Assembly (NCBI GenBank): GCA_947631155.1
Contig: CANRKG010000005.1
Span: forward strand, 629 to 64,628
DNA length: 64,000 nucleotides
Reading direction: 5' to 3'
DNA from: an uncultured Bacilli bacterium
Lineage (GTDB): Bacteria; Bacillota_I; Bacilli_A; RF39; UBA660
The notes under the pieces were generated by a model. That model saw only the letters and a program-made list of their open reading frames with translations. It had not been told where the DNA came from and made no database searches. Made by a program: the position numbers and the translations under genes. Positions 5,909 through 47,444 of the stretch are shown here, in pieces. The first letter of the stretch is position 1. Every line of letters starts with the position of its first letter.

Positions 5909-5911
5909 AGA

Positions 5912-9094: not shown

Positions 9095-9106
9095 TATATA
9101 AAAAAA

Positions 9107-10791: not shown

Positions 10792-10797
10792 TTAAAG

Positions 10798-10826: not shown

Positions 10827-10857
10827 AGAATTAATATGATGCTAAAGAGGTGTTGTT

Positions 10858-11525: not shown

Positions 11526-11527
11526 TA

Positions 11528-11821
11528 GTGAAAAAAAATACTTTTACCATGATTGATCAAAATGGAAATGAAATATTATATTATGTATTATTTACATTTG
11601 AAAGTGAAGAAACAAATAAAAATTATATAGTTTATACTGATCAAAGTAAAGATGAAAATGGAAACATTCAAGTTTTTGCATCTATCTATGATCCAGAAAA
11701 TCCTAATTCTAAATTAGAAGCAATTACTACTGATAGAGAATGGAAAGTAATTGAAACTATATTAGAAACACTACAAGAAGAAATTAAGAAAAAACAAGAA
11801 CAACCTAATGATGAGCAATAA
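11528..11821 (+). CDS. DUF1292 family protein (YrzB-like)
   Basis: Small acidic protein. Size, sequence style and synteny after ruvX fit YrzB. GTG start after GGGAGA. Confidence 0.7.
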   Translation: MKKNTFTMIDQNGNEILYYVLFTFESEETNKNYIVYTDQSKDENGNIQVFASIYDPENPNSKLEAITTDREWKVIETILETLQEEIKKKQEQPNDEQ

Positions 11822-11847
11822 GCTCATATTTTTCTGGAGGAAAGTGA

Positions 11848-15218: not shown

Positions 15219-15221
15219 ATT

Positions 15222-15250
15222 AAGAAAGATCAGCATCTTTCTTTTTTTTT
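15222..15250 (+). terminator. Rho-independent terminator
   Basis: 9-bp stem aagaaagat/atctttctt, 4-nt loop cagc, then a T-run. Confidence 0.75.
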
Positions 15251-15283
15251 GCTAATGAGATATAATACAGACGAGGTGTTTTT

Positions 15284-16162: not shown

Positions 16163-17344
16163 ATGGAAAAAATAGAATTATTGGCTCCAGCTGGCGATAT
16201 GGAGCGCTTAAAAATTAACTTGTTGTATGGTGCTGATGCCGTTTATATTGGTGGAAAAAAATATGGCTTACGTGCTAATGCTACTAACTTTTCAATATTC
16301 CAAATAAAAGAAGCCTGTAGTTTTGCACATAAATTGGGGAAAAAAGTATATTTAACTCTTAATATAGTTTTTCATAATGATGATATGAAAGATGTCGAAA
16401 CCTATATCAACGATGTCGTTGCTGCAGGAATTGATGCTTTTATTGTAAGTGATCCATTTATTATTTCATATATTAAAGAAAATTATAAAAATGTTGAAGT
16501 TCATCTTTCTACTCAAAATTCTACTTCTAACTATGAAGCAGTTAACTTTTTTAAACAAGAAGGAGTGGATAGAGTCGTTTTAGCTAGAGAGTTATCTTTA
16601 GAAGAAATAAAAACTATAATAGAAAAAACTAAAATTGATATTGAAGTATTTATTCATGGAGCGATGTGTACTTGTTATTCAGGAAGATGTGCTTTATCAA
16701 ATTATATAACTAATAGAGATGCTAATCGTGGAGGTTGTGCCCAAGTTTGTAGATTTAATTTTTTAACAGATAACAAAGATTTTACGATGGCTACTAAAGA
16801 TTTAAATGCCTGTAGATATATTAAAGATATGATAGAGCTTGGTGTTAGAAGTTTAAAAGTTGAAGGTAGAATGCGCTCTATTTATTATTTAGCAACAGTT
16901 ATTGGTACATATCGGAAAATAATAGATGCTATTTATGATAATAACTTAACAGAAGAGTTTTTAAAAGAACAAGAACAAATTTTGTCAAAAGTTGCTAACA
17001 GAGAAACATCAACTCATTACCTGACTAAAGAAGCTGATGAAACTGATCAGTATTATACAGGACGAGTTGAAATATCGAATCAAGACTATTTAGGACAAGT
17101 AATAAAGTATGATAAAAAGAATAAATTAATAAAAATATATGAAAGAAATTATTTTGAAATAGGAGATAAAGTTGAATTATTTACTCCTAAAGGACAAGTT
17201 ATTCCATTTACAGTGGAAAAATTATATGATGAAAAAATGAATCCAGTAGAGATAGCAAGACATCCAGATAATATTTATTATTTATATCTAGATACTTCAG
17301 TTGACATTTTAAAATATTCCATGATAAGATTAATGACAAAATAA
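16163..17344 (+). CDS. Peptidase U32 family protein, YrrO-like (TrhP-type, tRNA ho5U-associated family)
   Basis: U32 signature EVFIHGAMCTCYSGRCALS. Synteny matches the yrrM-yrrN-yrrO block. Confidence 0.85.
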   Translation: MEKIELLAPAGDMERLKINLLYGADAVYIGGKKYGLRANATNFSIFQIKEACSFAHKLGKKVYLTLNIVFHNDDMKDVETYINDVVAAGIDAFIVSDPFIISYIKENYKNVEVHLSTQNSTSNYEAVNFFKQEGVDRVVLARELSLEEIKTIIEKTKIDIEVFIHGAMCTCYSGRCALSNYITNRDANRGGCAQVCRFNFLTDNKDFTMATKDLNACRYIKDMIELGVRSLKVEGRMRSIYYLATVIGTYRKIIDAIYDNNLTEEFLKEQEQILSKVANRETSTHYLTKEADETDQYYTGRVEISNQDYLGQVIKYDKKNKLIKIYERNYFEIGDKVELFTPKGQVIPFTVEKLYDEKMNPVEIARHPDNIYYLYLDTSVDILKYSMIRLMTK

Positions 17345-17367
17345 TTAAATTAATAGGAGGTTATTTT

Positions 17368-17754
17368 ATGTATTATAAATTAAATATATACTATACATTT
17401 GAAGATACAGTTTTTTCTAAAACTGCTATTGTATCTAAGACAAAAAGGGGTATTAGAGAAATTATAACTAAAACTAAAATTCCTGTAGTAGATAATATGT
17501 TTGATGTTAGTTATGTAAGTAAAAAATATAATCTTTTTACTTATGATCGTGATATTACTAATTCGTCTCCAGCAACAGAAAAAGAAATTAATATCTATAT
17601 TGATACTTTTAATGAAAATCCTTCGTACGTTAACTCTTTTTTAAAAAAACAACAACAAAAGCAAGAAGAAAAAGAATATAAGAAACAACAAAGAATAATA
17701 AATAAAAAAGTAAAACAAAAAATAAAAGCGGCTAGAACAACATATTTTAAGTAA
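17368..17754 (+). CDS. Hypothetical protein with K/Q-rich C-terminus
   Basis: Strong RBS AGGAGG. No recognisable domain. Confidence 0.5.
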   Translation: MYYKLNIYYTFEDTVFSKTAIVSKTKRGIREIITKTKIPVVDNMFDVSYVSKKYNLFTYDRDITNSSPATEKEINIYIDTFNENPSYVNSFLKKQQQKQEEKEYKKQQRIINKKVKQKIKAARTTYFK

Positions 17755-17767
17755 AGGAAGTATTAGG

Positions 17768-18895
17768 ATGACTAATTTAGAACAAGCAAAACTTAATTTT
17801 TTGAACAAAGAGACTAATTTATCTAAATATGCTACTAAAAGTAGTGATGCTATTCGCATAAAAAAAATTAATGATGATATTAGAACGCCATATTTTAGAG
17901 ATATAGATAGAATAATTCACTCATTAAGTTATACTAGATATATTGATAAAACACAGGTGTATTCTTTTAAAGATAATGATCATATTTCAAAGAGAATGAT
18001 TCATGTTCAATTGGTATCTAAAATTGCTAGAACAATAGGACGATCTTTAAGATTAAATGAAGATTTAATTGAAGCCATTGCCCTGGGTCATGATATTGGA
18101 CATACTCCGTTAGGGCATGCTGGAGAAGCTATGCTAAATGAAATTTCTAAACAGGAATTAAATGAATATTTTGCACATAATATTCAAGGAGTTAGAAATT
18201 TAATGTATGTTGATAATAATGGTAACGGTCAAAATCTGACTCTGCAAACTTTAGATGGTGTATTTTGTCATAATGGAGAAATGGTTTGTGAAAAATATGA
18301 ACCCCTAAAAAAAGACTTAAAAGAGTTTATGCGAGAGTATGAAGAAGGATATATTGATTTAAAAAAATCTAAAAAATATGCGCCTATGACTTTAGAAGGT
18401 TGTGTCGTTAGAATATCTGATGTCATAGGATACATAGGTAGGGATATAGAAGACTCTATTAATTTGGGTTTGTTTAAAAGAAAAGATATACCTAAGAGTA
18501 TTTCTAAAGTATTAGGTAACAATAATCATGATATTATTAATACTATTATAACAGATATTATTAATGAAAGTATGGATAAACCATATATTAAAATGAGTAA
18601 AGAAGTGTTTAATGCTGTTTTTGAATTAAAGAAATTTAATTATGAAAATATTTACAAAAAATCAATGTCTGAGGCGGATTATGAATATTATAATCAGGGA
18701 ATGAAAAAAATTTATAATATTTATTTAGAGGCAATAAAGAAAAATGATCAAGAAAATATCATTTATAAAATCTTTTTAAATAGTCAAAGTACGGAGTATT
18801 TAAAAAATACTAATGATAAACGCAAGGTGATTGATTTTATTAGTGGTATGACTGATGAAATGTTTTTACATCAGATAAAAATTTGGTATAAATAG
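17768..18895 (+). CDS. HD-domain dNTP triphosphohydrolase-like protein (dGTPase family)
   Basis: HVQLVS...ALGHDIGHTPLGHAGE motif. Confidence 0.8.
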   Translation: MTNLEQAKLNFLNKETNLSKYATKSSDAIRIKKINDDIRTPYFRDIDRIIHSLSYTRYIDKTQVYSFKDNDHISKRMIHVQLVSKIARTIGRSLRLNEDLIEAIALGHDIGHTPLGHAGEAMLNEISKQELNEYFAHNIQGVRNLMYVDNNGNGQNLTLQTLDGVFCHNGEMVCEKYEPLKKDLKEFMREYEEGYIDLKKSKKYAPMTLEGCVVRISDVIGYIGRDIEDSINLGLFKRKDIPKSISKVLGNNNHDIINTIITDIINESMDKPYIKMSKEVFNAVFELKKFNYENIYKKSMSEADYEYYNQGMKKIYNIYLEAIKKNDQENIIYKIFLNSQSTEYLKNTNDKRKVIDFISGMTDEMFLHQIKIWYK

Positions 18896-18904
18896 AGTTT
18901 AACA

Positions 18905-18933
18905 TTGACAAATAACAAAAAATGTAGTATTAT
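18905..18933 (+). promoter_or_regulatory. Sigma-A-like promoter of greA
   Basis: TTGACA, 17-nt spacer, TATTAT. Confidence 0.55.
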
Positions 18934-18966
18934 TTAAACCGTATTATGTTTGTGAGGTGAAAAACA

Positions 18967-19443
18967 ATGGCAAATAATAGTAAAACAGTTTATTTAACTC
19001 AAGAAGGTCTAGATGAATTAAAAAAAGAGTTAGATAATTTAATTAATGTAAAAAGACCTGAAAATATCCAATCTATAAAGGAAGCTAGAGCATTAGGAGA
19101 TTTATCAGAAAATGCAGATTATGATGCTGCGCGTGATGAACAAGCTCAAATAGAAGGAAGAATTAAGACTATTGAGAAAATGCTTGAAAATGTTTCTATT
19201 ATTACAAAGACTGATACTGATAAAGTAGCCTTAGGAACAACCGTTTCTATTAAATATGTAGATGATGAAGACGAAGATGATGAATATAAAATCGTTGGTA
19301 GTCAAGAAGCTGATCCTTTTGAAAGCAAAATATCTAACGAGTCTCCAATTGCAAAGGCTTTACTTAATCATAAAGTAGGAGATATTGTTACAGTTGAAAG
19401 TCCAAATGGATCATATCAAATAGAAATTACAGCAATTAGTTAA
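18967..19443 (+). CDS. greA: Transcription elongation factor GreA
   Basis: LTQEGLDELKKEL coiled-coil N-terminus, GDLSENADYDAA motif, and C-terminal FKBP-like domain. Confidence 0.92.
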   Translation: MANNSKTVYLTQEGLDELKKELDNLINVKRPENIQSIKEARALGDLSENADYDAARDEQAQIEGRIKTIEKMLENVSIITKTDTDKVALGTTVSIKYVDDEDEDDEYKIVGSQEADPFESKISNESPIAKALLNHKVGDIVTVESPNGSYQIEITAIS

Positions 19444-19620
19444 AAACTTATTAATAGGTGAATATGTATATGTAATATAAAGCACAGAGTCACTATTATG
19501 ATTTTGTGTTTTTTGTTTAAATGGAATATAAAAAAATAAGCTTTATTATTATTAATCTTGTAATTTATAGTTGTCTAAATAAATAATATAAGTTATAATA
19601 TAACGTGTTGGAGGGATAAA

Positions 19621-20904
19621 ATGGCAAATAAAAAAGAAACAAATGAAACTAAAAAGAAAAATATTCATGAAATTACAATTAAAATTGATGGTGATGCATG
19701 GAAAGAAGCTTTAGATAAAGCGTTTAATGACAAAAAGAAAGATGCTAAAGTAGATGGTTTTAGAAAAGGAAAAGTTCCTAAAGATATTTATATTAAAAAA
19801 TTTGGAATAGAGTCTTTATTTATACCCGCAGCAGATTTAGTGCTACAAGATGCTTATACTAAGGCTATGGAAGAATCTAAATTAATACCTGTTGTGCAAC
19901 CCGATGTAAATCTAAAAGATATTAATGAAGAAGCTGTAGAATTTAGTTTTAAAATTATTACAAAACCAGAAGTTAATGTAAAAAAATATAAAGGACTAAA
20001 TATTAAACCAGAAAAAGTAAAAGTAACAAAAGAAGAAATTGAACACGAACTTTCTCATGTACTAGAAAGATATACAGAATTAGTTACTAAAGAAGGAAAA
20101 GTAGAAAATGGTAATGTTGCTGTTATTGATTTTGAAGGTTTTAAAGATGGAGTAGCTTTCGATGGTGGAAAAGGAGAAAATTATTCCTTAGAAATTGGTT
20201 CTAATACTTTTATTCCAGGTTTTGAAGACCAAGTAATTGGAATGAGTGTTGGAGAAGAAAAGGATATTAATGTTACTTTCCCAGAAGATTATCAAGTTGG
20301 AGATTTAGCAGGAGCACCAGTAGTTTTTAAAGTAAAAGTTCATGAAATTAAAGAAAAACAAACTAGAGAATTAGATGAAGATTTCTTTGAAGATTTAGGA
20401 ATTGAAGGTGTTGACACCAAAGAAAAATTAGAAGCTGAAATTGAAAAATCAATAAAAGCTCAAAAAGAAATGGATGTTGAAAATAAATATATTGATAAAA
20501 TATTAGAAGAAGTTTCAAAAAATGTTGAAGTTGATATTCCAGAAGAAATGGTAAATGAAGAAATTGATCGTTTAATGCGTCGTTTTGAAGAACAAATGAA
20601 AATGCAAGGAATTAGTTTAGATGTTTACTATCAATTTACTAAATCAACAGAAACAGATTTAAGAAATCAACTAGAAAAAGAAGCATATTCAAATGTTTTA
20701 TATAGATTGATGTTAGAAGAAATTATGGTACTAGAAAAGATTGAAGTAGCAGAAGAAGAAGCAGAAAAAGAAGCTACTGCTTTAGCTGAAAAGTATCAAA
20801 TGGAAAAAGATCAATTCTTAGAAAACTTTGGTGGAATTGATATGGTTAAATATGATTTAGAAATGCGTAAAACTTTAGAAGCATTAAAAGAATTAAATAA
20901 ATAA
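19621..20904 (+). CDS. tig: Trigger factor
   Basis: N-terminal ribosome-binding GFRKGKVP motif, central PPIase (FPGFEDQVIGM) and C-terminal domain. Confidence 0.92.
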   Translation: MANKKETNETKKKNIHEITIKIDGDAWKEALDKAFNDKKKDAKVDGFRKGKVPKDIYIKKFGIESLFIPAADLVLQDAYTKAMEESKLIPVVQPDVNLKDINEEAVEFSFKIITKPEVNVKKYKGLNIKPEKVKVTKEEIEHELSHVLERYTELVTKEGKVENGNVAVIDFEGFKDGVAFDGGKGENYSLEIGSNTFIPGFEDQVIGMSVGEEKDINVTFPEDYQVGDLAGAPVVFKVKVHEIKEKQTRELDEDFFEDLGIEGVDTKEKLEAEIEKSIKAQKEMDVENKYIDKILEEVSKNVEVDIPEEMVNEEIDRLMRRFEEQMKMQGISLDVYYQFTKSTETDLRNQLEKEAYSNVLYRLMLEEIMVLEKIEVAEEEAEKEATALAEKYQMEKDQFLENFGGIDMVKYDLEMRKTLEALKELNK

Positions 20905-27130: not shown

Positions 27131-27550
27131 ATGAATAATAAAGGTTTTACATTAGTGGAATTATTAGTTACTATGGTTTTAGTAGGAATTATTAGTGGAA
27201 TTGCTTTTCCAGCTATTTCAAAATTACGTGATCAAAATAAAGATGAAGAGTATAAAGCCTATGAAAAAATTATTTTAAATGGCGCTAAAATTTATATGGA
27301 TGATAACGTAGATATATGGCAATATACCAGAAAAGAATCAAAGGCATTAAATAAAAGCGAATGTAAAAAGCTAACCTTTTCAGATTTATCGAAATATATT
27401 AAAGCCTATAACAAAAATGGAATTGATTGTGATTCATCATATGTAATTGTTAATAAGGATAGAGACTATAATATTACTTATCAGGCAGTTGCTATTTGTA
27501 AAAAAAACAGTCAAACAGTCTATAAAACAGAAACGGAAGCTAGTTGTTAA
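27131..27550 (+). CDS. Type IV pilin/pseudopilin with class III (prepilin) signal
   Basis: MNNKG|FTLVELLVTMVLVGIISGIAFPA is a canonical G-FTLVE cleavage/methylation motif. There are four Cys in the globular part. Confidence 0.85.
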   Translation: MNNKGFTLVELLVTMVLVGIISGIAFPAISKLRDQNKDEEYKAYEKIILNGAKIYMDDNVDIWQYTRKESKALNKSECKKLTFSDLSKYIKAYNKNGIDCDSSYVIVNKDRDYNITYQAVAICKKNSQTVYKTETEASC

Positions 27551-27629: not shown

Positions 27630-27685
27630 AAGTATTGTTAAAAACAATAAATATAGTAGTAGAAGTAAAGAAAGGAAGTATAATT

Positions 27686-28228
27686 ATGGAATTAGAAGGA
27701 AGTAAAACACAAGCAAACTTGATGGCAGCATTTGCTGGAGAAAGTCAGGCTAGAAACAAATATACTTATTATGCAAGTAAAGCTAAAAAAGATGGATATG
27801 AACAATTAGCTGCAATTTTTTTAGAAACAGCTGAAAATGAAAAAGAACATGCAAAATTATGGTTTAAAGAATTACATGGTGGCGATATTCCAGATACAGC
27901 TACTAATTTAGAAGATGCTGCAGCTGGTGAAAACTATGAATGGACTGAAATGTATAAGGATTTTGCTAAAACAGCTAGAGAAGAAGGTTTTGATAGAATT
28001 GCTAAATTATTTGAGATGGTTGGAGAAATTGAAAAAGAACATGAAAAGAGATACTTGACATTACTTCAAAATCTTAAAGATGATCGTATTTTCCATAAAA
28101 ATGGAAATAAAATTTGGGTATGTCGTAACTGTGGATATGTCTATGAAGGTAGTGATGCTTTAGAAGTATGTCCAGTATGTAAACATCCACAAAGCTTTAT
28201 GGAAGTTAAAGCTGATAATTACGAATAA
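27686..28228 (+). CDS. rbr: Rubrerythrin
   Basis: Ferritin-like di-iron motifs ([22 protein letters not shown]) plus a C-terminal rubredoxin-like CRNCGY...CPVCKHP. Confidence 0.92.
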
Positions 28229-31662: not shown

Positions 31663-32190
31663 ATGTCTAATAAAAAAAATGATGATTTAAGAAAGATTCC
31701 AACTAAAAATTATGTAATTTTATTAATCATATTTTTAATTACATTTTTACTGGTATACTATTTATATCGCTTTTATGTAGTGTATTCTAGCTATCAAAAA
31801 GAAACTCCTATAATTAGAGATGTCTTACCAGAAATAACAGATCAAGAATTAGAACACTATATTCAAGAGTCTCCATCTATTGTTATTTATATGTGTACAG
31901 CTAGTGATGATACTTGTCGTAACTTTGAAAAAAGTTTTAAAAAATTGATTAATAAGAAAAATTTATCAACTTATATTACTTACTTAAATTTAAGCAATGC
32001 CGATATAGATAACTTTACTAATGAATTTAATAATTCATATCAATATAAACAAAAATTAACAAATAATTATCCAGCTTTAGTAGTATTCGAAGATGATAAA
32101 GTTAGAGATATTATTCAAAATAGTAAAAAAGAAAAAATAAATATGACTGATGTTGAACAATTTTTAAAAAGAAATAAAATAGGGGAGTAA
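31663..32190 (+). CDS. Membrane-anchored thioredoxin-fold-like protein (tentative)
   Basis: N-terminal TM segment. An extracytoplasmic domain of about 130 aa carries IVIYMCTASDDTCRNFE where thioredoxins carry CxxC. Confidence 0.45.
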   Translation: MSNKKNDDLRKIPTKNYVILLIIFLITFLLVYYLYRFYVVYSSYQKETPIIRDVLPEITDQELEHYIQESPSIVIYMCTASDDTCRNFEKSFKKLINKKNLSTYITYLNLSNADIDNFTNEFNNSYQYKQKLTNNYPALVVFEDDKVRDIIQNSKKEKINMTDVEQFLKRNKIGE

Positions 32191-32789: not shown

Positions 32790-33659
32790 TTATAAATCTT
32801 TAAGACTTATACCTGTAATTTGAGATATCTCTTCTATAGAAAAATTTCTCTTTTGCATTTCTTTGGCTATTTCTTTATTTCTGGTATTAATTCCTTGTTC
32901 TATTCCTTTTTCCAAACCTTTTTCTATTCCTTGTTCTATTCCTTGTTCAAGTCCAGCCTTAACTCCATCTTCATAACCTTCACTTCTAATGGAATTTTCA
33001 ATCTTTCTATTATCTTCTTCTGCACTCATATATTCTCTAAATTCTGGTTCTTCATTTACTCTTTCTATCTCATTCATATACTTTGATACCACCTTATCTT
33101 TGATAGATAGTTTTCTTAATTCCTTTAATCCTAAATCTAGCATTAATAAATATTTATTTGCTTCTATCTCTTCTTGGTTCTTATTGTACCAAAAACTTTT
33201 ATATTTTTCCATATTTATTTCATAGATTATTAAGTTCTTGACATACTTATTTCCTTTATCATCTTGAACTAAATATTTCCTGATATATTCTTCATTTTTA
33301 ATATCATAACTCATGTTGATTTGAATTATTAATGTTTTCTCATTATACTCTTCTCCTACTAAGATATGGTGAGAATAGATATCACATATATAAGCCATAT
33401 TTCTACTATTTAAATATTTAGGATTTTCAGTATTTACTTCTACTTGAATCTTTCCTATATCTGTTTCTAAATATAAATCCAGATGTTTTCTTTTTACCTT
33501 AATATTATCTACATTTCTTTCTAGATTTAGAAATCTTATTTTGTCTATTTTTACTTTTAAGATTGTTTCTAAGACCTTTTCTAAAATATCTTTATTTTCT
33601 TCTTTCATAAAGACTTCTTTAAAGGCTCTATCATATTTACATGTGTAAAACTTTTCCAT
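32790..33659 (-). CDS. Rpn-family recombination-promoting nuclease / putative PD-(D/E)XK transposase
   Basis: N-terminus KYDRAFKEVF...LDLYLETDIGKIQVEVN (PD-(D/E)XK-like). C-terminal GLEQGIEQGIEKGLEKGIEQGI repeats are typical of this family. Confidence 0.75.
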   Translation of the reverse strand: MEKFYTCKYDRAFKEVFMKEENKDILEKVLETILKVKIDKIRFLNLERNVDNIKVKRKHLDLYLETDIGKIQVEVNTENPKYLNSRNMAYICDIYSHHILVGEEYNEKTLIIQINMSYDIKNEEYIRKYLVQDDKGNKYVKNLIIYEINMEKYKSFWYNKNQEEIEANKYLLMLDLGLKELRKLSIKDKVVSKYMNEIERVNEEPEFREYMSAEEDNRKIENSIRSEGYEDGVKAGLEQGIEQGIEKGLEKGIEQGINTRNKEIAKEMQKRNFSIEEISQITGISLKDL

Positions 33660-39042: not shown

Positions 39043-39804
39043 ATGAAGAGAATTAAGTATAAAAAACAATTAGTAATTTTATCTATTGTAATAATATTAT
39101 GTCTAATTTCTATTATAATTTTTAAACCCTATTATAAATCTAAAGATAGAGTGAGAAAAATAAAAAACTTTAATGAAAGTAAAGAAAATATAAAGCCACT
39201 TGGATGGTTAAGAGTTCAAGGAACTAATATTGATTTTCCAATTATGTATTACTATGATGTTGAAGATGTTGGAGATCCTACTTATGATTTAGGTTGGAGT
39301 TTTGATAATAATAGAAAATTAGCTAATAGAACAGTTATTTTATCGCATAATATGAGAAATGTTTCAAGTAAGCCTTTAATAGGAGATAAAGAACATGCGA
39401 GATTTGAGCAATTAATGGGATATATATATTATGACTTTGTAAAAGAAAATAAATATATTCAATATACAATAGATGGAAAAAATTATCTATTTAAAATATA
39501 TGGAGTATCTCTTCAAAAAGAAAAAGATATCGATTTAGAAAATCTAGACAAAGATGAGCTAGAAGATTATATAAAATATACTAAAGAACAGAGTTACTTT
39601 AAATTTGATATTAATGTTAATAAGAATGATAAATTAATAACATTAATTACATGTACAAGATTCTTTGGTAATAATGATTACTCATTTGTAGTGGATGCTA
39701 GGAAAGTGAGAAAAACTGAATTAATTAAGAATTATAAAGTGACAGAAAACGATAGTTATAACAAAATTAAAAAAATGTTGGAAGGAGATGATAAAAATGA
39801 ATAA
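39043..39804 (+). CDS. Sortase family transpeptidase (class B-like)
   Basis: N-terminal TM segment, LGWLRVQGTNIDFPIMY, His in VILSHNM, catalytic TLITC motif and downstream Arg (VVDARKV). Confidence 0.8.
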   Translation: MKRIKYKKQLVILSIVIILCLISIIIFKPYYKSKDRVRKIKNFNESKENIKPLGWLRVQGTNIDFPIMYYYDVEDVGDPTYDLGWSFDNNRKLANRTVILSHNMRNVSSKPLIGDKEHARFEQLMGYIYYDFVKENKYIQYTIDGKNYLFKIYGVSLQKEKDIDLENLDKDELEDYIKYTKEQSYFKFDINVNKNDKLITLITCTRFFGNNDYSFVVDARKVRKTELIKNYKVTENDSYNKIKKMLEGDDKNE

Positions 39805-42800
39805 AAAATGGGGTAAAAAATTATTGCTAGTATTATTAATTATAAGTGTAATTTACTTTCCTAATGATATCCAGGCAAAGAAAAATAAATGCACAGTGGA
39901 TCCTGAGGATTTCTTTGATGTTAGCAAATATAGTACAAACCCATTAACAGGTTATAGCAACGGACATTATATATATGGCATCAATGCTAGAACAATTAAA
40001 ATTACAGTTAGTAAACCTAAAAGATATCAGGTATTTATCTATAAAGGAGCAATTGATACAGTGTCTGGTGCTGAACACTTGGCTGGACTTAGCCAAGGTG
40101 ATTTAAATAAAATGTATGGTAAAGGAAAAATCTCAAAAACGAAAATAGAAGTTGGAGATTTAGAAAAGGATTATACAATTAAAGTAGAACCTGGTACTGA
40201 GGCTTTAGTAGTAGTTGTATATAAAGGAGATAAAGATACTAAAGCAACACAATCTGACAAATGTAACAATACAACAGGAAAAAGTAAAGACGGTTGTTGT
40301 ATTGGATATTTTAAACAAAATGGTGAGGATGATGAAATTTATGGAACGGGTGCTAGTACATTTGTTGAAAATCCAACTGATAATTTTTTAGTTCCGAATT
40401 TACGTGCTGTAGGTGCTAGTACTTCAGGGGTTAGTAATGCATGTACTAATGCTTATAATGGGATATTCCAACCTGTTAATAAAGAATATGAAAAAGATGC
40501 AGAAAATTTTACTATTAAAAACTGGAGCGGAGATTTAAATACATGGAGAAATGAATATTTTAATAAAATGTTTCCTTATTGTACCACTCCTTCTGTTGCA
40601 TTTAACTTAAGTGATCATAATATTAAAATTATTGCTAATAAATTGTTACGTATGTTTAAATACATTTCACAATTACAAAGCGTTGGTTCGGCTGGTTATG
40701 ATAGTATAAATGCTGAAATTAATAGGATAAAAGATGATTTAGAAAATAGACATCTTTCAAATAATTATTATATAAAAGATAATGGAACTTCTATTGGTAA
40801 CTCTAATATTTTAAATTCTTCTTTACAATGTAATTATAGTGATCTTGTATATAATAAAACAGAAAAAAAAGTAGAATATAAAGATGGTTCAGGAGAGTCT
40901 GATTATTTGTATGCTGAAAAAGGTAGTATTAGTGTTGATATAAAAACACTTTCATCAAAAAAACGCACATATAAAGTTTGTGATACAGCATGTTATGAAC
41001 ATTTAAAAGTGGTTTATAGTCCACCACAAGTTGTTAAAGCTGGATTATGTTTCCAATATAAAGTAACAATCAAGAGTGTAACTGATTGTGGAGCTGATTT
41101 TAATGAAGGATTAAAAGATATATTATCTAAACCTCCAGGTGATCCTAACGGTATGTATCCTGAAATGTGTTCAGCAACACCTATCTGTGATGGTAATGAA
41201 ACTAAAGTTTCAGCAGGACCATCTAAAGATTTTGATGATTGTGTATCTACTTGCGACGGAGGTGAATATACACAATCTTGTATAAATAAATGCTATAAAA
41301 AAGTTTATGGTAATACTTCTAAAAAATCTTCTAGTGACAATAAAATTCAAAAAAGTAGTAATGAAAATAAAACAGATAATATTAAAGAAGTGAATCCATC
41401 ATTTATGATACAAAATAATAATAATAACAGTAATTTAATTAACATTGCAAATATTAGTAAATTAAAAAGTGATGATGATTTTACAGAATATTTTGATGGA
41501 AATAAATTACCTGGAGAATATAAAAATATATGTGGTTCTAACAAAAACATAAGAGACCATATTGATGATTGCGCAGAATATTTCTTTACAGCAAAATCAG
41601 TTAAGCCATATGGACATTATAGCTGTAATAATAATGGACATTGTTCTTGGAATCAAACTGCTACAGCTACAAATTGTAATTCTAGTTATTATGGTTGTGA
41701 AATTGCTCGAGTAGCAACTTATTATGCTAGAGATTTGGAGTCTACTAAAATGTTAATCAAAAGGTTAATAGGAGGATCTTTAGCAGGTTTAAGTAGTGAA
41801 GATAGACGATATATAGTGAATAATAATGGAATATTAGTTCAACGAAAAAATTCTGGCTGGTATTGTCAAATGTCTTGTTCACATCATGGTTGTACTAATG
41901 ATAAGGCATTAACTAGTGGTGATTATACAGATTTAATGAATGAAAATTTAAAAGCAATAAATCAAGCTCTTCGTGATTGTAATGAATTAGTAGTAGGTAA
42001 TAATAATGATCCATGTGAGCCTTCTAACGGAGTAAAAACTTCTACCTTTGACATAAATATAAAGACTAATACTAAACGTGGTAGTGATGAACCTGGAACA
42101 AAAACTGGTAGTAATAAATTACATTCTTCTCTTGTTGATCCACCTGAACCTAATTGTCCTGATGACAAAATGTTTGTTAAAGCGGATAAAAACGATTCTT
42201 CTTCATCACTAAATGGTATTTTTGGAACTTGTTATAATGAAGTAGGTCAAGATGATAATGGTAATAGAGTTCATTATCAAACTACGATTACTTTCCCAGG
42301 ATCATGGATTGATTTAAAAACAGGTGAAGTTTTCTATGATTGTAAAGAGGAAGGTTATAAGAATAAAGTTCAATATTACTGTACACCATTTGATTCATTT
42401 AATGTAAATACTAATTGGTGGAACTGGGCTGTTAATAATGAGTATAATGGTTCTGCACCAGCACCAGATGATTGGAATATAGAAGCACATTTAGGATTCG
42501 TAAATGAAAGAAATGAAGATGTTGGTTTTGGTAAATATAAATGGCATATTGGTTTCCAATGTTTCTATTCTCAATTGGATGAAATAATAGGATCACCACT
42601 ACCACCACCAGATGGTCCATCATGTTATCGTGGTAAAGAAGGAACTTCAGAAGAATGTCCTGATGATTCTGATAAGAAGGGTACATCCACAAAAGTAAAT
42701 TATGATATTAGAATAGTTGATTTAGAAAATTTATTTCCTAATAACAGATTACGTGGATTTAACTGGGGTGATGCTGCTCAATTAAAATCTACTGATCCAC

Positions 42801-43132
42801 AAATTCAAACAGCTTTAAAAACTACAGGCTATGGTGTTTCTCCAGTAGATTATTCACATATTGTTCAAGGATTAGATTCATATGGTGGTGAAGGTGGAGA
42901 AAAAATCTATGATAAAGATTATGATTTAAGAGTAGTATTAAATGCAGATAATGTTGCTAACATAAAAAATGAAAAAATAGATGACTTTAGTGGAAACTAT
43001 ACAGCAGTAAATAATATTCCAGGACTTTATTATTATAGAATGCCAGATACGTTCTTAAGTTTAGTTAGCTCATATGATATAAATTGGGAACGAGGAAAAA
43101 ATAGTAAAATGGCTATTAAAGTTACAAAGTAG
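39797..43132 (+). CDS. Large secreted cysteine-rich protein (~1,110 aa), unknown function
   Basis: Sec-type signal peptide (KKLLLVLLIISVIYFPNDIQA|KK). About 35 Cys by my count, many in CxxxC or CxnC clusters. Internal poly-N/S linker. No LPXTG, lipobox or C-terminal TM segment. Confidence 0.7.
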   Translation: MNKKWGKKLLLVLLIISVIYFPNDIQAKKNKCTVDPEDFFDVSKYSTNPLTGYSNGHYIYGINARTIKITVSKPKRYQVFIYKGAIDTVSGAEHLAGLSQGDLNKMYGKGKISKTKIEVGDLEKDYTIKVEPGTEALVVVVYKGDKDTKATQSDKCNNTTGKSKDGCCIGYFKQNGEDDEIYGTGASTFVENPTDNFLVPNLRAVGASTSGVSNACTNAYNGIFQPVNKEYEKDAENFTIKNWSGDLNTWRNEYFNKMFPYCTTPSVAFNLSDHNIKIIANKLLRMFKYISQLQSVGSAGYDSINAEINRIKDDLENRHLSNNYYIKDNGTSIGNSNILNSSLQCNYSDLVYNKTEKKVEYKDGSGESDYLYAEKGSISVDIKTLSSKKRTYKVCDTACYEHLKVVYSPPQVVKAGLCFQYKVTIKSVTDCGADFNEGLKDILSKPPGDPNGMYPEMCSATPICDGNETKVSAGPSKDFDDCVSTCDGGEYTQSCINKCYKKVYGNTSKKSSSDNKIQKSSNENKTDNIKEVNPSFMIQNNNNNSNLINIANISKLKSDDDFTEYFDGNKLPGEYKNICGSNKNIRDHIDDCAEYFFTAKSVKPYGHYSCNNNGHCSWNQTATATNCNSSYYGCEIARVATYYARDLESTKMLIKRLIGGSLAGLSSEDRRYIVNNNGILVQRKNSGWYCQMSCSHHGCTNDKALTSGDYTDLMNENLKAINQALRDCNELVVGNNNDPCEPSNGVKTSTFDINIKTNTKRGSDEPGTKTGSNKLHSSLVDPPEPNCPDDKMFVKADKNDSSSSLNGIFGTCYNEVGQDDNGNRVHYQTTITFPGSWIDLKTGEVFYDCKEEGYKNKVQYYCTPFDSFNVNTNWWNWAVNNEYNGSAPAPDDWNIEAHLGFVNERNEDVGFGKYKWHIGFQCFYSQLDEIIGSPLPPPDGPSCYRGKEGTSEECPDDSDKKGTSTKVNYDIRIVDLENLFPNNRLRGFNWGDAAQLKSTDPQIQTALKTTGYGVSPVDYSHIVQGLDSYGGEGGEKIYDKDYDLRVVLNADNVANIKNEKIDDFSGNYTAVNNIPGLYYYRMPDTFLSLVSSYDINWERGKNSKMAIKVTK

Positions 43133-43143: not shown

Positions 43144-43587
43144 ATGAATAAAGCTATGTTAACAGTAGGAATTATTTTATTAAGTATAATTGCCTTAGGA
43201 GTTATAAATGTAATTCAAAATTATACAACAGGTCAAGAATTAGATTATTATTTGTTAAAAGAAACTACAGAAGCAGCTATGGAAGATGCAGTGGATTTAA
43301 GTTATTATACTGAACAATCAACTATTAGAATGGATAAAGAAAAATTCGCTGAAAGTTTTATTAAAAGATTTGCTAGAAGTGTTGATGATCGTAGAAGCTA
43401 TCAAATTAGCTTCTATGATGTCAATGAAATTCCACCAAAAGCCAGTGTGGAAGTAAAATCTGCTACTAGTTATACTTTTAAGTCATCTGCTGTTGATATT
43501 ACAACAAGATTAGATATGATTGTTGAAAATAATAATAAAAAGGATCCATTAGCTTATAAACTTGCCAGTACTATAAAAGCTAGTTAA
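43144..43587 (+). CDS. N-terminally anchored small protein, TadE/pseudopilin-like (tentative)
   Basis: Short charged leader plus hydrophobic helix (MNKAMLTVGIILLSIIALGVINV), then a beta-rich domain of about 120 aa. Located directly upstream of the CpaB-like gene. Confidence 0.45.
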   Translation: MNKAMLTVGIILLSIIALGVINVIQNYTTGQELDYYLLKETTEAAMEDAVDLSYYTEQSTIRMDKEKFAESFIKRFARSVDDRRSYQISFYDVNEIPPKASVEVKSATSYTFKSSAVDITTRLDMIVENNNKKDPLAYKLASTIKAS

Positions 43588-43607: not shown

Positions 43608-44411
43608 ATGGGTAATTTAAGTGTTGGTATTAAAAAATTTCTTTCTAATAAAAATACAGTTACAATTTTAGGTGTTGTTGCTGCTGTATTTGTATTATAT
43701 TTTGGATATAATTCTAAAGTAAATAAAGCTATTACACCGATTAAAGTTCCTTACGCTAAAGAAACTATTTCTCCAGGAGAACAAATTACTGATGATATGA
43801 TAGGAGAAAAAAATGTTTCTAGTGAAACTGTAAATGATGGTAGTGCTTATATAAATAAAAGTGAAGTTTTAGATAAATATTCAAATGCAGATACAGTTAT
43901 TCCTAAAGGAAGCTTATTTTATAAAAGAGCAGTTGTAACTAAAGAGCAATTACCTGATAAGATAATATATGATTATCCTAATGGTTATGTATTATTTAAT
44001 TTATCAGTTGATATAAATTCAACATACGGTAATTCAATTTATCCAGGAAATTATATTGATATTTACTTAAAAGCAATGAATGCTGTTGAAGAAGGACAAG
44101 AAATAACAACAACTGATAAAATTATGGTTGGTAAATTATTAGAAAATGTTGAAGTATTAGCAGTTTTGGATAGTAATGGTAATAATGTATTTGCTAATCT
44201 TGATGAAAAAGGTTCTCCTAGTATGATTATATTTGCGGTTCCTTCAGAGTATTATATATTATTAAAAAAAGCTGGTTTCTTAAGAGCTTATGATTCTACA
44301 TTAATACCAGTACCAACTGATGAGAGTTTAAAAGATAATCCAGGAGAATTAAAATTAAGTAGTAATGATTTAAAAGACTTTATTAATAGAGTAACAGAAT
44401 GGACAGAATAG
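43608..44411 (+). CDS. CpaB/RcpC-like Flp pilus assembly protein (SAF domain)
   Basis: TM anchor, SAF-like ITPIKVPYAKETISPGEQITDDMI, then GYVLFNLSVDINSTYGNSIYPGNYIDIYL and LLENVEVLAVLD, matching the CpaB pattern. Confidence 0.65.
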   Translation: MGNLSVGIKKFLSNKNTVTILGVVAAVFVLYFGYNSKVNKAITPIKVPYAKETISPGEQITDDMIGEKNVSSETVNDGSAYINKSEVLDKYSNADTVIPKGSLFYKRAVVTKEQLPDKIIYDYPNGYVLFNLSVDINSTYGNSIYPGNYIDIYLKAMNAVEEGQEITTTDKIMVGKLLENVEVLAVLDSNGNNVFANLDEKGSPSMIIFAVPSEYYILLKKAGFLRAYDSTLIPVPTDESLKDNPGELKLSSNDLKDFINRVTEWTE

Positions 44412-44439
44412 AATAAAAAGGAAGGTAGTGGGTTATTAG

Positions 44440-45753
44440 ATGAATGAAAATGTTTTTGATAAACTTGACTTTGGCCCTTTAAAGCCACTTCTTGATAATG
44501 ACGATATCACAGATATTTCATTTTGTAATGGTGGTCAAATTTGGATTCGTTCGTTAACCCAAGGATCTCAGAGAGTTGAAATTCAAGGATTAACTCCTGA
44601 GTTTATGGAAAAGTTAGCATTTCAATGTTCTAACGTTATGGGAACAACCTTTAATAATGCCAAACCTTTCTTAGATGCTGAATCCGCAGAATTACGTTTC
44701 AATTTTGTTCATCAATCGATAGCTACTAATGGGATTGCATGTGTTATTCGTAAAACTCCAGCAAAAATTAGATTAGAGAAAAATAAACTTCTAAAAGAAG
44801 ATTACTTTACAGCAGATATACATGATATTTTAATTAAATGTGTTGAAGGTCATTGCAATATAATAGTGGCTGGGGAAACTGGTTCTGGTAAAACAGAGTT
44901 TGTAAAATATTTAGCAAGTCATACTAAACAGGATGAAAAGATTATTACAATTGAAGATACACTGGAGCTTCATTTGGATAGGATTTTTCCACAGCGTGAT
45001 ATTGTGGCTATGAAAACTAATAATGTAGCTAGTTACTCAGATGTTTTGGTAACTTGTATGAGACAAAATCCAAAATGGATATTGTTGTCAGAAGTCCGTA
45101 GTGCTGAAGCAGTTAGTGCGGTTCGTAACTCAATTTCTTCAGGACACAATATTTTATCAACAATACATGCTGATAAAGCTAGCGCTATTCCATATCGTTT
45201 ATATAGTTTGATGGAAACTGATTTAGATGTTAATCAATTTTTATCTACAATTTATAGATATATTCAATTAGGTGTTCATATTAAAGCTTATTATAGTAAA
45301 GAATATGGTAAATTTCATCGTGAAGTAGATGAAGTTGTTGAATTTTACGTTGATGATGATAATGTTCCACAATCTCATACAATATATAGAAAAGTATATG
45401 GTAAACCACCTATGCAAAATAAACCTAGTGCACATTTAATAGAGTATTTAGAAAATCAAAATATTGATATAAATGCAATAACAGCTAATATGAAAGAAGG
45501 CGAACAACCTCCTAATCAAGCTTCAGCAACAAATATACCACAAGCTAATAATGTTGCAGTAGCAACCGTTCAAGCTGTAGCAAAACCAGTTCAAGCAGTT
45601 ACAAATGTTAGTGCAGTGCCAGTACAATCTGTTAATGTAAATACTGTTCAAGTACCTCCTGCGCAACAACCTAATGTGGCCAATGTTGGACAAGCTGTAC
45701 CAAATAATTTGGCAAATATCATGCCACCACCAATAAATAAAACTAATCAATAA
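44440..45753 (+). CDS. TadA/CpaF-type secretion ATPase (T2SS-E/VirB11 superfamily) with low-complexity C-terminal tail
   Basis: Walker A GETGSGKTE, Asp box ITIEDTLEL, Walker B WILLSEVRSAEA and His box SGHNILSTIHA. It is followed by two T2SS-F-like genes. Confidence 0.85.
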   Translation: MNENVFDKLDFGPLKPLLDNDDITDISFCNGGQIWIRSLTQGSQRVEIQGLTPEFMEKLAFQCSNVMGTTFNNAKPFLDAESAELRFNFVHQSIATNGIACVIRKTPAKIRLEKNKLLKEDYFTADIHDILIKCVEGHCNIIVAGETGSGKTEFVKYLASHTKQDEKIITIEDTLELHLDRIFPQRDIVAMKTNNVASYSDVLVTCMRQNPKWILLSEVRSAEAVSAVRNSISSGHNILSTIHADKASAIPYRLYSLMETDLDVNQFLSTIYRYIQLGVHIKAYYSKEYGKFHREVDEVVEFYVDDDNVPQSHTIYRKVYGKPPMQNKPSAHLIEYLENQNIDINAITANMKEGEQPPNQASATNIPQANNVAVATVQAVAKPVQAVTNVSAVPVQSVNVNTVQVPPAQQPNVANVGQAVPNNLANIMPPPINKTNQ

Positions 45754-45768
45754 AAGGGGTGAAATTAC

Positions 45769-46662
45769 ATGGAACTAATTTTATTATTACTTATAGCAGT
45801 AGTAGTAATGTTATATAGAGGCTACGAAGGTAAAGACGTAGGTAAATTTATTACTAGTCATATTGGTACTGTGTATGAAAAATTTGCCCCTTTTTCTTTC
45901 AAAGTAGTTCGCGAAAAAACTAAGCAATTAGGAAAAGAATACACTGTTAGACAATATTCAATACAGATTGTATTATTTTCTACTTTTGCAGGAGTAATTA
46001 CATATTTATATTTTTATAATATTTTAATTAGTATTGTGTATATAGTAGCGGTAATTATGGTTATTCCATATTTATCATATTTAAGGTGTAAAAGAGTATA
46101 TAGTGAATTTCTTTTTGAACAAATACAAGTATATACATCTAATACTATTATGGAATTTGCAACAACACAATCATTTGTAAAAGCAATTGAAGGAGTTAGA
46201 GACTCAGGTGTTTTAGAAGATCCAGTAAAAACAGATGTAGAGCATATGATAGAATTAGCTTATCAAAATGGTAGTATTGAAGAATCCTTAAAGTACATGA
46301 GTAATTTATATCCATATTATATAGTTAAAAATATGCATCAATTGTTTTTACAAATCACTAAAGAAGGTGCGAGAAATTCTGCTGATAGTTTGGAGAACAT
46401 GCAACAAGATATAGATATGTTAGTTGAAAGCGTTTACCGTGATAGACAAGATAGAGCAACTTTCCATAAGCAGTTTTTACAATTTGGAATCATGCTATAT
46501 TTCATGCTTATGTTAACTCAATATCTATTAGGACGTGAATCATATCTATTATTACTTGAAAAGCCAGTTATCAAAATATTATTACATGGTGCTCTTATTG
46601 TTAATAGTATCTTTCTTTTAAAAGGTGAGAAATATTATAATGAGAATGTAGGTGCTGAATAA
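45769..46662 (+). CDS. TadB-like (T2SS-F domain) inner-membrane platform protein
   Basis: TM-cytoplasmic helical domain-TM layout. Position is directly after the ATPase. Confidence 0.6.
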   Translation: MELILLLLIAVVVMLYRGYEGKDVGKFITSHIGTVYEKFAPFSFKVVREKTKQLGKEYTVRQYSIQIVLFSTFAGVITYLYFYNILISIVYIVAVIMVIPYLSYLRCKRVYSEFLFEQIQVYTSNTIMEFATTQSFVKAIEGVRDSGVLEDPVKTDVEHMIELAYQNGSIEESLKYMSNLYPYYIVKNMHQLFLQITKEGARNSADSLENMQQDIDMLVESVYRDRQDRATFHKQFLQFGIMLYFMLMLTQYLLGRESYLLLLEKPVIKILLHGALIVNSIFLLKGEKYYNENVGAE

Positions 46663-47444
46663 TGGATATAATTTTAGTTTGTGCAATTTTAATATTTATA
46701 TTATTTTATAATAAAACTGTTGACGGCAAAAAATTCTTAATCGATAATGAAAAATATTTTCAAGCTTTAAGAGAAGAAGATTATGATTTCTTATTATATG
46801 CTAAATATGGTGAGGAAGCAGAACCAGATCTTTTATTCCGAAAAAGAATAACAACCGCTTTAATTTTTGGCTTTATCTTTTTAATAATTTTTTTAAATGA
46901 AATATCTTTAATTAATATTGTGTTAGCATTAATTGTTATGTTTGGGGTTTTTAAATTTCCTTATTTACAATTGAAACAATATTATAAAGCACATTTACAT
47001 GAAATTGACATTATGTTGCCATACTATTTAAAAAGTTTAGAAATTTTAATTCAACATTATACAGTTCCAGTAGCAATTGGTAAATCAATTGATGATGCAC
47101 CGGAAATATTTAAACCAGGTTTACGACAAATTGTTGAAAGAGTTAATTCAGGTGATTCAAGTATTGATCCATATATGGAATTTTCTAACACTTATCCTGT
47201 TAGAGATTCAATGCGAATGATGAGATTACTATATCGTTTAGGAATTGGATCCCAAGAGAATAAACAAGAACGTTTAATGATGTTTTCAAGAACAGTTTCT
47301 AATTTACAAAATAAAGCCCGTGAAATTAAATATAAAGAACGTTTAGGACATATGGAAAGTCAAACTATGATTATGTTAGTTGTAACAGGTGTTGCAGTTA
47401 TGTTGATTATTCTAGTGTCAATGATGGGAATGTTTAATGTATAA
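46662..47444 (+). CDS. TadC-like (T2SS-F domain) inner-membrane platform protein
   Basis: LPYYLKSLEILIQHYTVPVAIGKSIDDAPEIFKPGLRQIVERVNSGDS fits the GspF/TadC repeat pattern. 1-nt overlap with the upstream gene. Confidence 0.65.
   Translation: MDIILVCAILIFILFYNKTVDGKKFLIDNEKYFQALREEDYDFLLYAKYGEEAEPDLLFRKRITTALIFGFIFLIIFLNEISLINIVLALIVMFGVFKFPYLQLKQYYKAHLHEIDIMLPYYLKSLEILIQHYTVPVAIGKSIDDAPEIFKPGLRQIVERVNSGDSSIDPYMEFSNTYPVRDSMRMMRLLYRLGIGSQENKQERLMMFSRTVSNLQNKAREIKYKERLGHMESQTMIMLVVTGVAVMLIILVSMMGMFNV

Follow-up and report, generated by a model that had tools for sequence, protein, structure and literature searches.

We analysed a 64,000-nucleotide stretch of DNA from an uncultured bacterium of the Bacilli (positions 629 to 64,628 of contig CANRKG010000005.1, assembly GCA_947631155.1; hereafter the window), and here describe P0001, the giant cysteine-rich protein encoded by the largest gene of a cluster of Tad-like pilus and type IV secretion system (T4SS) genes. 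The gene order of this cluster was kept in every locus that we inspected. A 520-residue polytopic protein, a 590-residue transmembrane protein with an Ig-like domain, a sortase-like protein, the giant and a DUF5411 protein are followed by a CpaB-like protein, a TadA-like ATPase, two polytopic proteins, small pilin-like open reading frames (ORFs) and two VirB2-like proteins; the run ends with TrbL/VirB6, a VirB4-like protein, a SpoIID-like hydrolase and VirD4. The flanks are also constant, being housekeeping genes for a U32 peptidase and a SpoU methylase. This constancy of order and flanks implies a chromosomal, lineage-wide apparatus rather than a mobile element. The genomes of this order of uncultured gut Bacilli measure 0.7-1.5 Mb, and such a chromosomal Tad-like/T4SS locus is kept by about 80% of those sampled; the largest gene of the locus has neither a name nor a known fold. 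The features discussed are collected in Table 1.

Table 1. Features around the giant gene and parts of its product in the window; the last five rows give, in the coordinates of each locus, the protein found in place of the sortase in other genera
Feature	Size or residues	Coordinates	Strand	Evidence and remarks
PedC-like/DUF6568 protein		31663..32190	+	PF20207, E 1e-35; transmembrane-anchored, thioredoxin-fold-like, C-x6-C replacing CxxC
Transmembrane-anchored protein with bacterial Ig-like domain	590 aa	37255..39027	+	PF16403, E 3e-16
Sortase-like membrane-anchored protein		39043..39804	+	PF04203, E 6.7e-8; class B sortase model, E 7e-14, below cut-off
Giant cysteine-rich protein (P0001)	1,111 aa	39797..43132	+	open frame, ribosome-binding-site spacing, overlap with sortase stop
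Sec-type signal peptide	aa 1-27	39797..39877	+	h-region aa 9-21, hydrophobic peak aa 9-27 only; likely cleavage IQA|KK
N-terminal beta-sandwich (FN3/Ig-like)	aa 32-192	39890..40372	+	predicted strands; FN3 Foldseek matches; low conservation
Helical bundle	aa 200-320	40394..40756	+	five helices, pLDDT ~90; low sequence conservation; C216/C262 co-vary
Beta-core	aa 330-469	40784..41203	+	long beta-hairpins, pLDDT ~90; seven conserved Cys
Twin CX3C helical hairpin	aa 477-504	41225..41308	+	helices 477-487 and 493-504; C482/C486...C495/C499
Disordered N/S/K-rich linker	aa 505-556	41309..41464	+	sequence; AlphaFold pLDDT ~27
C-terminal body half	aa 557-961	41465..42679	+	alpha/beta domain, long helix aa 707-737, beta-rich domain with HYQTTITFPGSWINLKTGEV
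C-terminal module	aa 962-1111	42680..43129	+	hhalign, hmmsearch; proposed docking domain
DUF5411 protein		43144..43587	+	PF17424, E 2e-48; N-terminal transmembrane helix, no Cys; fixed downstream neighbour
Tad-like assembly genes		43608..47444	+	CpaB/RcpC-like PF16976, TadA/CpaF-like ATPase PF00437, polytopic proteins in TadB/TadC positions
Replacement protein, locus L023		3839-4612		
Replacement protein, locus L024		5123-5758	-	
Replacement protein, locus L026		6998-7789	-	
Replacement protein, locus L027		4574-5254	-	
Replacement protein, locus L028		5298-6059	-	

The open frame for the giant gene runs from 39788 to 43132 on the forward strand and offers an alternative upstream ATG at 39788. 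In the sequence 5' of the gene, GGAAGGAGATGATAAAAATGAAT, the second ATG (39797) lies about 10 nt 3' of the ribosome-binding site GGAAGGAG, and we prefer it as the start because of this spacing to GGAG; the first-pass annotation described below had taken the same start. Begun there, the gene shares 8 nt with the end of the sortase-like gene, whose TAA lies at 39802-39804, and the two may well be translationally coupled. P0001 begins with a signal peptide, and comparable ones stand at the start of all 71 homologues. After residue 30 it has no hydrophobic segment (the best 19-residue stretch has a Kyte-Doolittle value of 0.65), and its hydrophilic C terminus, ...NWERGKNSKMAIKVTK, carries no sorting signal. 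A first-pass annotation, made from the sequence alone, had described a secreted protein without wall or membrane anchor or recognisable domain, with about 35 cysteines in tight clusters and a poly-Asn/Ser linker, as the largest gene of its cluster, translationally coupled to a sortase homologue and not far from a rubrerythrin. This picture holds well: there are exactly 35 cysteines, every quoted cluster is present in the translation, the linker is a disordered N/S/K-rich segment, and the rubrerythrin is found at 27635-28228.

Two AlphaFold2 models were built: one from a 30-sequence alignment (pLDDT 57) and one from a 71-sequence alignment (pLDDT 73, pTM 0.64, 702 residues at or above 70). The predicted N-terminal sandwich has a disordered, cysteine-bearing loop (aa 145-180). 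The beta-core contains cysteines 345, 395, 399, 418, 431, 458 and 464, the motif YSPPxVVKAGLCFxYKVTIKS and the invariant residues E401, P410, G416 and Y421, and the twin CX3C hairpin that follows is the most conserved stretch of the protein. Conserved cysteines of the C-terminal body half are 579, 690, 694, 699, 728, 740, 812, 862, 922, 943 and 954. When 205 full-length members of the family, mostly less than 50% identical to one another, were compared segment by segment, conservation was high at aa 395-505 and 826-925, and variability at this deep scale was concentrated in aa 28-395. Residues K841, N871 and N894 of the beta-rich domain (~42317-42478) are invariant across these 205 members and would fit an intramolecular isopeptide bond.

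Searches for known relatives were largely empty. A Pfam hmmscan of P0001 gave only a sub-threshold match to DUF6143 and nothing else at E <= 1, NCBIfam and PHROGs returned nothing above threshold for the whole protein, and no PDB chain matched the profile of the giant family by sequence. Foldseek comparison of both models with the PDB, and of the better one also with BFVD, gave nothing at E <= 0.001. The N-terminal sandwich resembled FN3 domains (E 0.008-0.05, best probability 0.98, target TM-score 0.48-0.51, root mean square deviation ~7 Å over ~150 columns); further Foldseek matches to Factor XIII, protein 4.2 and ester- or isopeptide-containing adhesins were non-significant and were rejected. 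For the other ~900 residues, no relative with a known structure could be detected. The structural check that the first-pass annotation had proposed thus yielded no known family that explains the cysteines, and only this tentative likeness to FN3.

Relatives by sequence are numerous and narrowly distributed. A word-indexed search found 52 clusters, all unnamed and of ~900-1,150 residues. When 1.84 billion representatives were searched exhaustively with a profile, the family grew to 594 clusters (at 50% identity) with E <= 0.001, 410 of them with E <= 1e-30. The genome records that carry the family are all metagenome-assembled genomes of uncultured gut 'Bacilli' (rabbit, mouse, Hadza people, rumen), a few of which bear the NCBI labels Erysipelotrichaceae or Muribaculaceae. 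In a GTDB-based set, the full-length profile matched 38 of the 201 genomes of the order and 13 of its 98 genera, in genomes of 0.7-1.6 Mb. Neither P0001 nor a divergent C-terminal module had a tblastn match among 72,556 plasmids, and on this ground we rejected an adhesin of conjugative plasmids. In the literature that we found, the giant family, its fold, its C-terminal module, the odd-cysteine rule set out below and the accompanying absence of Dsb enzymes are not described; a cysteine-rich adhesin of a pilus or T4SS is, as a kind, already known.

Cysteine conservation and pairing

Cysteine makes up 3.15% of P0001, compared with a median of 1.0% over the ORFs of its genome (1.48 Mb in 64 contigs, 25.8% GC, ~96% complete), and no other ORF in that genome has as many cysteines; with an expected mean of 11, the Poisson probability of 35 is ~8e-9. 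Among 148 proteins crudely predicted to be exported or anchored, the next-highest count is 12, and the median content is 0.6% versus 1.0% for non-membrane proteins. Such a low content agrees with the 'cysteine exclusion' reported for what Firmicutes export (PMC2823432), and P0001 is the outlier that the first-pass annotation took it to be when it called disulfide-rich extracellular proteins unusual in this phylum. The cysteines are also conserved. Twenty-two of the 35 are invariant among 30 homologues of 30-38% identity, and across the 205 full-length members conservation reaches at least 99% for 17 (345, 395, 399, 418, 431, 464, 482, 486, 495, 499, 690, 694, 728, 740, 812, 862 and 922) and at least 92% for C32, C167 and C458. 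The objection that the annotation had raised against its own suggestion, that the cysteines might not be conserved in homologues, therefore fails.

The cysteines that are not universal appear and vanish in pairs, which is the footprint expected of disulfide partners. A cysteine at position 1101 and a C-terminal cysteine occur together in 106 sequences, with neither found alone in any (phi 1.0), and where C486 is missing, so is C495 (phi 1.0); C216 and C262 co-occur with a phi of 0.81, C291 and C309 with a phi of 0.80. In the N-terminal sandwich, a C32-C167 disulfide is probable. Both CX3C motifs sit on the two helices of the predicted hairpin, in the geometry of a twin CX3C protein, and from this model we infer that 486 would be bonded to 495 and 482 to 499.

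Counts by segment lead to the same conclusion, with one exception. The number of cysteines is even in 189 of 205 members in the N-terminal sandwich, and likewise in 189 of 205 in the helical bundle; it is 4 in the twin CX3C hairpin of 203, 0 in the linker of 179, and even in 163 for the C-terminal half taken from aa 556 to the end, terminal module included. The beta-core (aa 330-469) has exactly seven in 185 of 205 members and an odd number in 189. The even-cysteine pattern of disulfide-bonded secreted proteins (Dutton/Daniels) is thus seen in the paired co-occurrence and in most segments, where the first-pass annotation had proposed to check each subdomain for it, and breaks down in the core and in the total. 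Indeed, after removal of the signal peptide the total is odd in 192 of 206 full-length members (93%), with counts from 25 to 47, and at least 4 of the 14 even-count exceptions are mis-called cleavage sites. Because the members are related by descent, these parity counts are not independent; the parity nonetheless holds over at least 10 different totals.

With seven cysteines in the core and even counts in the segments around it, one conserved cysteine is left without a partner in its own domain; probably, therefore, one beta-core cysteine takes no part in an intradomain disulfide. It lies in one of the two most conserved regions of the protein, and its retention suggests a single thiol with a function. 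This cysteine may be free, may serve as a switch through disulfide exchange or may form one half of an inter-domain or intermolecular disulfide. Several specific roles were considered and rejected. The 590-residue Ig-like protein is a poor partner for an intermolecular disulfide, its ectodomain cysteines being mostly even in number (4 or 6) and following no matching odd rule. A Cys3-His zinc site formed by C395, C399 and H402 is contradicted by the lack of conservation of the histidine, and a Cys-Gln thioester by the glutamine of the consensus TQAGP, which is not invariant and is replaced in P0001, where the residues are V471-S472.

The C-terminal module and its DUF5411 neighbour

The C-terminal module has the motif NYDIRxVDLxNLFP..RxxGFNW...Y..DYxIxLT..I..IKxYN. 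Its residues N989 and W990 are invariant. In P0001 it is free of cysteines, and many relatives carry one terminal cysteine pair there. It has no relative in Pfam or the PDB, and it is common to giants that are otherwise unrelated: hhalign aligned it to the giant of another locus (L028; probability 95%, E 2.8e-8), and hmmsearch found it in six further giants (E 3e-11 to 6e-7). A profile built from 17 diverse modules matched 142 of the 201 genomes of the order, all of them among the 160 that are positive for DUF5411. Coordinates were compared for 50 genomes: in each, the two matches share a strand, and the module ends 6-246 nt before DUF5411 begins to match. Outside the family to which the window belongs, there was one weak match among 350 other Bacilli genomes, and a phylum-level search added nothing to the class-level one. 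The module serves as a simple sequence marker for equivalents of the giant in other genera that would otherwise be unrecognisable.

DUF5411 itself is far commoner than the giant family, being found in 160 of 201 genomes and 81 of 98 genera of the order. In published work it was noted beside CpaF/PilC-like genes where pilus loci had been predicted in gut Firmicutes of the Clostridia (PMC9523054). Seven DUF5411 loci without a match to the giant family were fetched, and in all seven the upstream gene encodes another large secreted cysteine-rich protein, of 526-1,528 residues and with 10-70 cysteines, the bodies of these positional equivalents being unrelated. The architecture is thus one of a varying or replaced body, a conserved tail and a fixed neighbour.

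In one lineage the two partners are arranged differently. At 4295-7816 of locus L029 (genome G110), DUF5411 is fused at its C terminus to an extension of ~1,000 residues, giving a protein of 1,173 residues with 44 cysteines, and the 526-residue ORF upstream of it carries the C-terminal module. DUF5411 likewise lies in long open frames in G082, G148, G200 and G038. The fusion shows, at the level of predicted proteins, how large cysteine-rich bodies could be displayed on the DUF5411 protein, and it looks like a 'modular pilin'. In the type IV pili of Streptococcus sanguinis, modular pilins are bulky adhesive modules on a pilin-like N terminus. The DUF5411 fusions of L029, G082, G148 and G200 resemble this arrangement; the differences are that the window encodes the giant as a polypeptide of its own and that the identity of DUF5411 as a pilin is putative.

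Candidate functions and relation to known systems

Taken together, these data suggest, with a probability that we put at roughly 55%, that the giant serves the chromosomal Tad-like pilus/T4SS apparatus as adhesin or as the subunit for target recognition, comparable to PilY1 or TraN, with a variable, disulfide-stapled body and a C-terminal module for docking. The protein, which carries a Sec export signal and has no anchor of its own, would fold with ~17 disulfides, the twin-CX3C-stapled hairpin included, that brace the body against gut proteases and pulling force. The C-terminal module would dock non-covalently on DUF5411 and/or pilin-like proteins, at the tip of a fibre or the outer face of the machine, much as PilY1 docks on minor pilins, and the body would project outward to bind a partner cell or surface. 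One cysteine of the beta-core, unpaired within its domain, may stay free, act as a switch through disulfide exchange or link the protein to another molecule. The export signal, the missing anchor, the conservation and pairing statistics of the cysteines, the module and its genomic coupling are seen directly in the sequences; docking, location, binding and the role of the odd cysteine are read from genomic evidence. Of the three functions suggested in the first-pass annotation, a tip adhesin or fibre-associated receptor-binding protein fits the context best, because of the module and the fixed place of the gene immediately before DUF5411 and the Tad-like genes; metal or cofactor binding is conceivable for the invariant core cysteines. 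If the giant is such a contact or recognition subunit, it would decide what these bacteria attach to and offer a handle for co-culture or enrichment.

Several observations weigh against this proposal. The interaction between module and DUF5411 is suggested by adjacency and co-occurrence only, and DUF5411 has no recognisable prepilin-type cleavage motif and no relative in the PDB, so that its pilin identity is only putative. Among close relatives, identity is 0.64-0.88 in all segments and variation runs evenly along the protein, with no hypervariable head. AlphaFold confidence for P0001 is only moderate, and the invariant cysteine columns of the core carry no covariation, so some of them could bind metal instead. 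There is also the question of what would make the disulfides. Profiles for Thioredoxin_4, DSBA, DsbB, VKOR, DsbD_TM and Redoxin (PF13462, PF01323, PF02600, PF07884, PF02683 and PF08534), which match in 3 to 14 of 14 control genomes, had no match in this 96%-complete genome, nor was an enzyme of the CcdA/DsbD type found there, and its only thioredoxins are two small ones of cytoplasmic type. Without DsbA/BdbD, DsbB, VKOR, CcdA/DsbD or Redoxin, it is hard to see how an anaerobic gut organism would form disulfides. The cysteine pattern is thus unusual in three ways: P0001 is an outlier in a phylum that excludes cysteine, it is made without recognisable Dsb enzymes, and it keeps an odd number.

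The DsbA/BdbD-like oxidoreductase that the first-pass annotation proposed to look for was, accordingly, missing, and the sole candidate for an extracytoplasmic thiol-disulfide enzyme is a weak one, the PedC-like protein. Its gene lies a few genes upstream of the giant, in conserved synteny, and 163 of the order's 201 genomes have it. The conserved C-x6-C of its product is YMCTASDDTCRNFEK, and the product matches the PedC/BrcD model at E 0.0018, far below the cut-off of that model. We rejected it as a dedicated oxidase since it is present in genomes that lack the system (G006, G012) and so does not co-vary with it. The gene is also missing from genomes that have the system, for example G010, which is 100% complete and encodes a giant with 34 cysteines, and in the G110 lineage the PedC-like protein lacks both cysteines although neighbouring proteins carry 44. 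Among crudely predicted exported proteins of the window's own genome with at least two cysteines, 59 have even and 17 odd counts; this excess hints at some disulfide-forming capacity despite the lack of known Dsb enzymes.

The alternatives differ from our proposal mainly in where the giant sits and in what its cysteines do. It is possible, though we think it doubtful, that the giant belongs to the T4SS half of the apparatus and works in the manner of TraN or PrgB, on the wall or the machine rather than on a Tad-like fibre, stabilising mating pairs or contact with a target. The gene lies in the same operon-like run as those for VirB2-like, VirB6/TrbL, VirB4 and VirD4 proteins, and the module could equally bind wall or machine; moreover, TraN is itself a Sec-exported cysteine-rich adhesin with a variable tip (PMC9246713), and Gram-positive T4SSs are said to use adhesins in place of pili (PMC12857230). 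However, the giant is fixed at the head of the Tad-like genes, beside DUF5411 and not beside the VirB genes, it has no known wall-binding or LPXTG signal, and no similarity to TraN, PrgB or thioester-domain (TED) adhesins was found. We regard as unlikely a purely structural role, in which the giant would be a wall-crossing conduit, a cap or a platform for fibre assembly and would bind no partner. That positional equivalents in other genera have unrelated bodies of 720-1,528 residues would be unusual for a core component, and the duplicated cassettes of some genomes fit interchangeable specificity better, even if the near-universal presence alongside DUF5411 within the order and the highly conserved core (aa 395-505 and 826-925) are what a structural part would display; PilY1-type proteins also prime pilus assembly (PMC5979040).

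Chemistry at the unpaired cysteine would make the giant an enzyme or a covalent adhesin: a thioester adhesin, a cysteine peptidase, a transglutaminase-like protein, or a substrate or partner of the sortase. The odd count kept in 93% of members maps to the most conserved domain, where the invariant E401 is near C399, and K841, N871 and N894 are invariant as well; an active-looking sortase is translationally coupled, and thioester adhesins serve Gram-positive conjugation (PMC8092201). We nevertheless consider this quite improbable. Pfam gives no TED, peptidase or transglutaminase match, the TQAGP glutamine is not conserved and P0001 has Val-Ser there, the Factor XIII and adhesin matches of Foldseek were restricted to the N-terminal sandwich region as well as non-significant, there is no sorting signal, and one lineage pairs the giant with a sortase homologue that lacks His, Cys and Arg. 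Least credible to us is that many of the invariant cysteines bind metal, as structural zinc or iron-sulfur sites, and so allow an anaerobe without Dsb machinery to fold the protein. The anaerobic habitat, the nearby rubrerythrin, the CX3C and CX5C spacings in the core and the lack of pairing information in its invariant columns would suit this idea; the strictly paired gain and loss of the variable cysteines, the classic disulfide-staple geometry of the twin CX3C hairpin, the unconserved His402 near C399 and the even-count excess among the genome's other exported proteins speak for disulfides.

A more ambitious version of the adhesin proposal, which we offer as speculation and think rather unlikely, would make the giant the partner-recognition head of an essential contact machine, comparable to the T4SS and pili of epibiotic Patescibacteria, with the odd cysteine forming a reversible covalent (disulfide-exchange) or force-gated link to target or fibre. 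These gut Bacilli with reduced genomes would then depend on contact with other cells. If this version were true, in a lineage without known disulfide-forming enzymes, it would imply an undiscovered route of oxidative folding in strict anaerobes.

Among characterised systems, the closest functional analogue is PilY1/PilC of type IVa pili (Pseudomonas, Neisseria, Myxococcus), which offers the likeness of a large (~1,000-1,200 residues) Sec-exported non-pilin, encoded beside minor-pilin genes, with a conserved C-terminal domain and a variable N-terminal part. The C-terminal domain of PilY1 contacts minor pilins, and its vWA domain lies at the apex and in strain PA14 has seven cysteines, for which a force-sensitive disulfide switch has been proposed (PMC8806160). 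We detected no similarity in sequence or fold, P0001 having no match to the Neisseria_PilC beta-propeller in Pfam, the PDB or Foldseek. The module described here is an alpha/beta domain of ~150 residues rather than a beta-propeller, the giant has far more cysteines, its host is a monoderm with a Tad-like rather than a T4a machine, and tip location is known for PilY1 but here is suggested by genes only.

The nearest parallel among T4SS proteins is TraN, which stabilises mating pairs in F-type systems. It is T4SS-associated and Sec-exported and has 22 conserved cysteines; its core is conserved, its variable 'tip' sets which recipient is chosen, and the 20-22 conserved cysteines are predicted to be all disulfide-bonded (PMC9246713). 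F-like systems also encode the thioredoxin-fold proteins TrbB and TraF (PMC7555446), which the PedC-like gene near the giant would parallel, except that it does not track the system. TraN is, however, an outer-membrane protein of diderms, of ~600 residues, with an even number of cysteines and from another sequence family. P0001 showed no sign of membership in Pfam, NCBIfam, the PDB or the plasmid tblastn search, and the gene content of its host, sortase included, is that of a monoderm.

Tad pili carry interchangeable tip complexes, as shown for the Kil system of Myxococcus (PMC12075869). The exposed variable domains and the several alternative tips per genome recall the second cassettes of some relatives (see below), whereas those tips are built of pilin-like proteins processed by prepilin peptidase, and the giant has an ordinary Sec signal and no pilin part. 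Transfer operons of Gram-positive conjugation systems encode sortase-anchored or thioester adhesins, PrgB of pCF10 and TIE/p34 of pLS20, which are large surface proteins and help donor and recipient to make contact (PMC12857230, PMC8092201). The giant shares their size and likely surface location, and a sortase gene adjoins it, but it lacks an LPXTG-type signal, a polymer-adhesin domain, a thioester domain and Cna repeats, and its locus is chromosomal and lineage-wide, with no homologue among the plasmids searched. Nor does it appear to belong to the TED/TIE group: the sequence LC418F(Q/N) resembles a TED cysteine motif, yet there is no TED match in Pfam and the region is predicted to form long beta-hairpins.

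The sortase and other neighbouring genes

The putative catalytic residues of the sortase-like protein, H102, C204 and R220, are kept in 18 of 19 distinct homologues. The homologue at 8533-9342 of locus L020, beside a gene of the giant family, lacks the His, Cys and Arg (LGSNDN / LITNTNV / SAKLV) and is a pseudo-sortase. The sortase co-occurs with the giant family, and other genera have in its place a protein of 211-263 residues with a signal peptide, four conserved cysteines and a C-terminal transmembrane helix followed by a KRR-type tail, without LPXTG. No sorting signals were found among the neighbours of the giant. The sequence NPLTG (aa 48-52) of P0001 was rejected as a sortase motif, being N-terminal and not conserved, and beyond gene overlap and co-occurrence we saw no sign that the giant is a substrate of the sortase.

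Some relatives carry a tandem second cassette upstream of the main one, consisting of a 589-residue Ig-like protein and a 1,065-residue giant (L001 and L002, at 8189-13198 and 14844-20333, and L007). These cassettes include no second sortase, and genomes G091 and G097 give two giant matches each. Their composition suggests that the Ig-like protein and the giant may act as a pair and that heads can alternate.

Outside the Tad-like/T4SS run, a 139-residue protein whose N terminus has a methylation motif of the prepilin type (PF07963, E 9e-9) is encoded at 27131-27550, beside the rubrerythrin. Finally, SpoU and the first cluster gene are separated in the window by an inserted gene of a PD-(D/E)XK transposase family (32790-33659, reverse strand) and the M29 and M23 peptidase genes that follow it; in L001-L003, SpoU is directly followed by the cluster genes.

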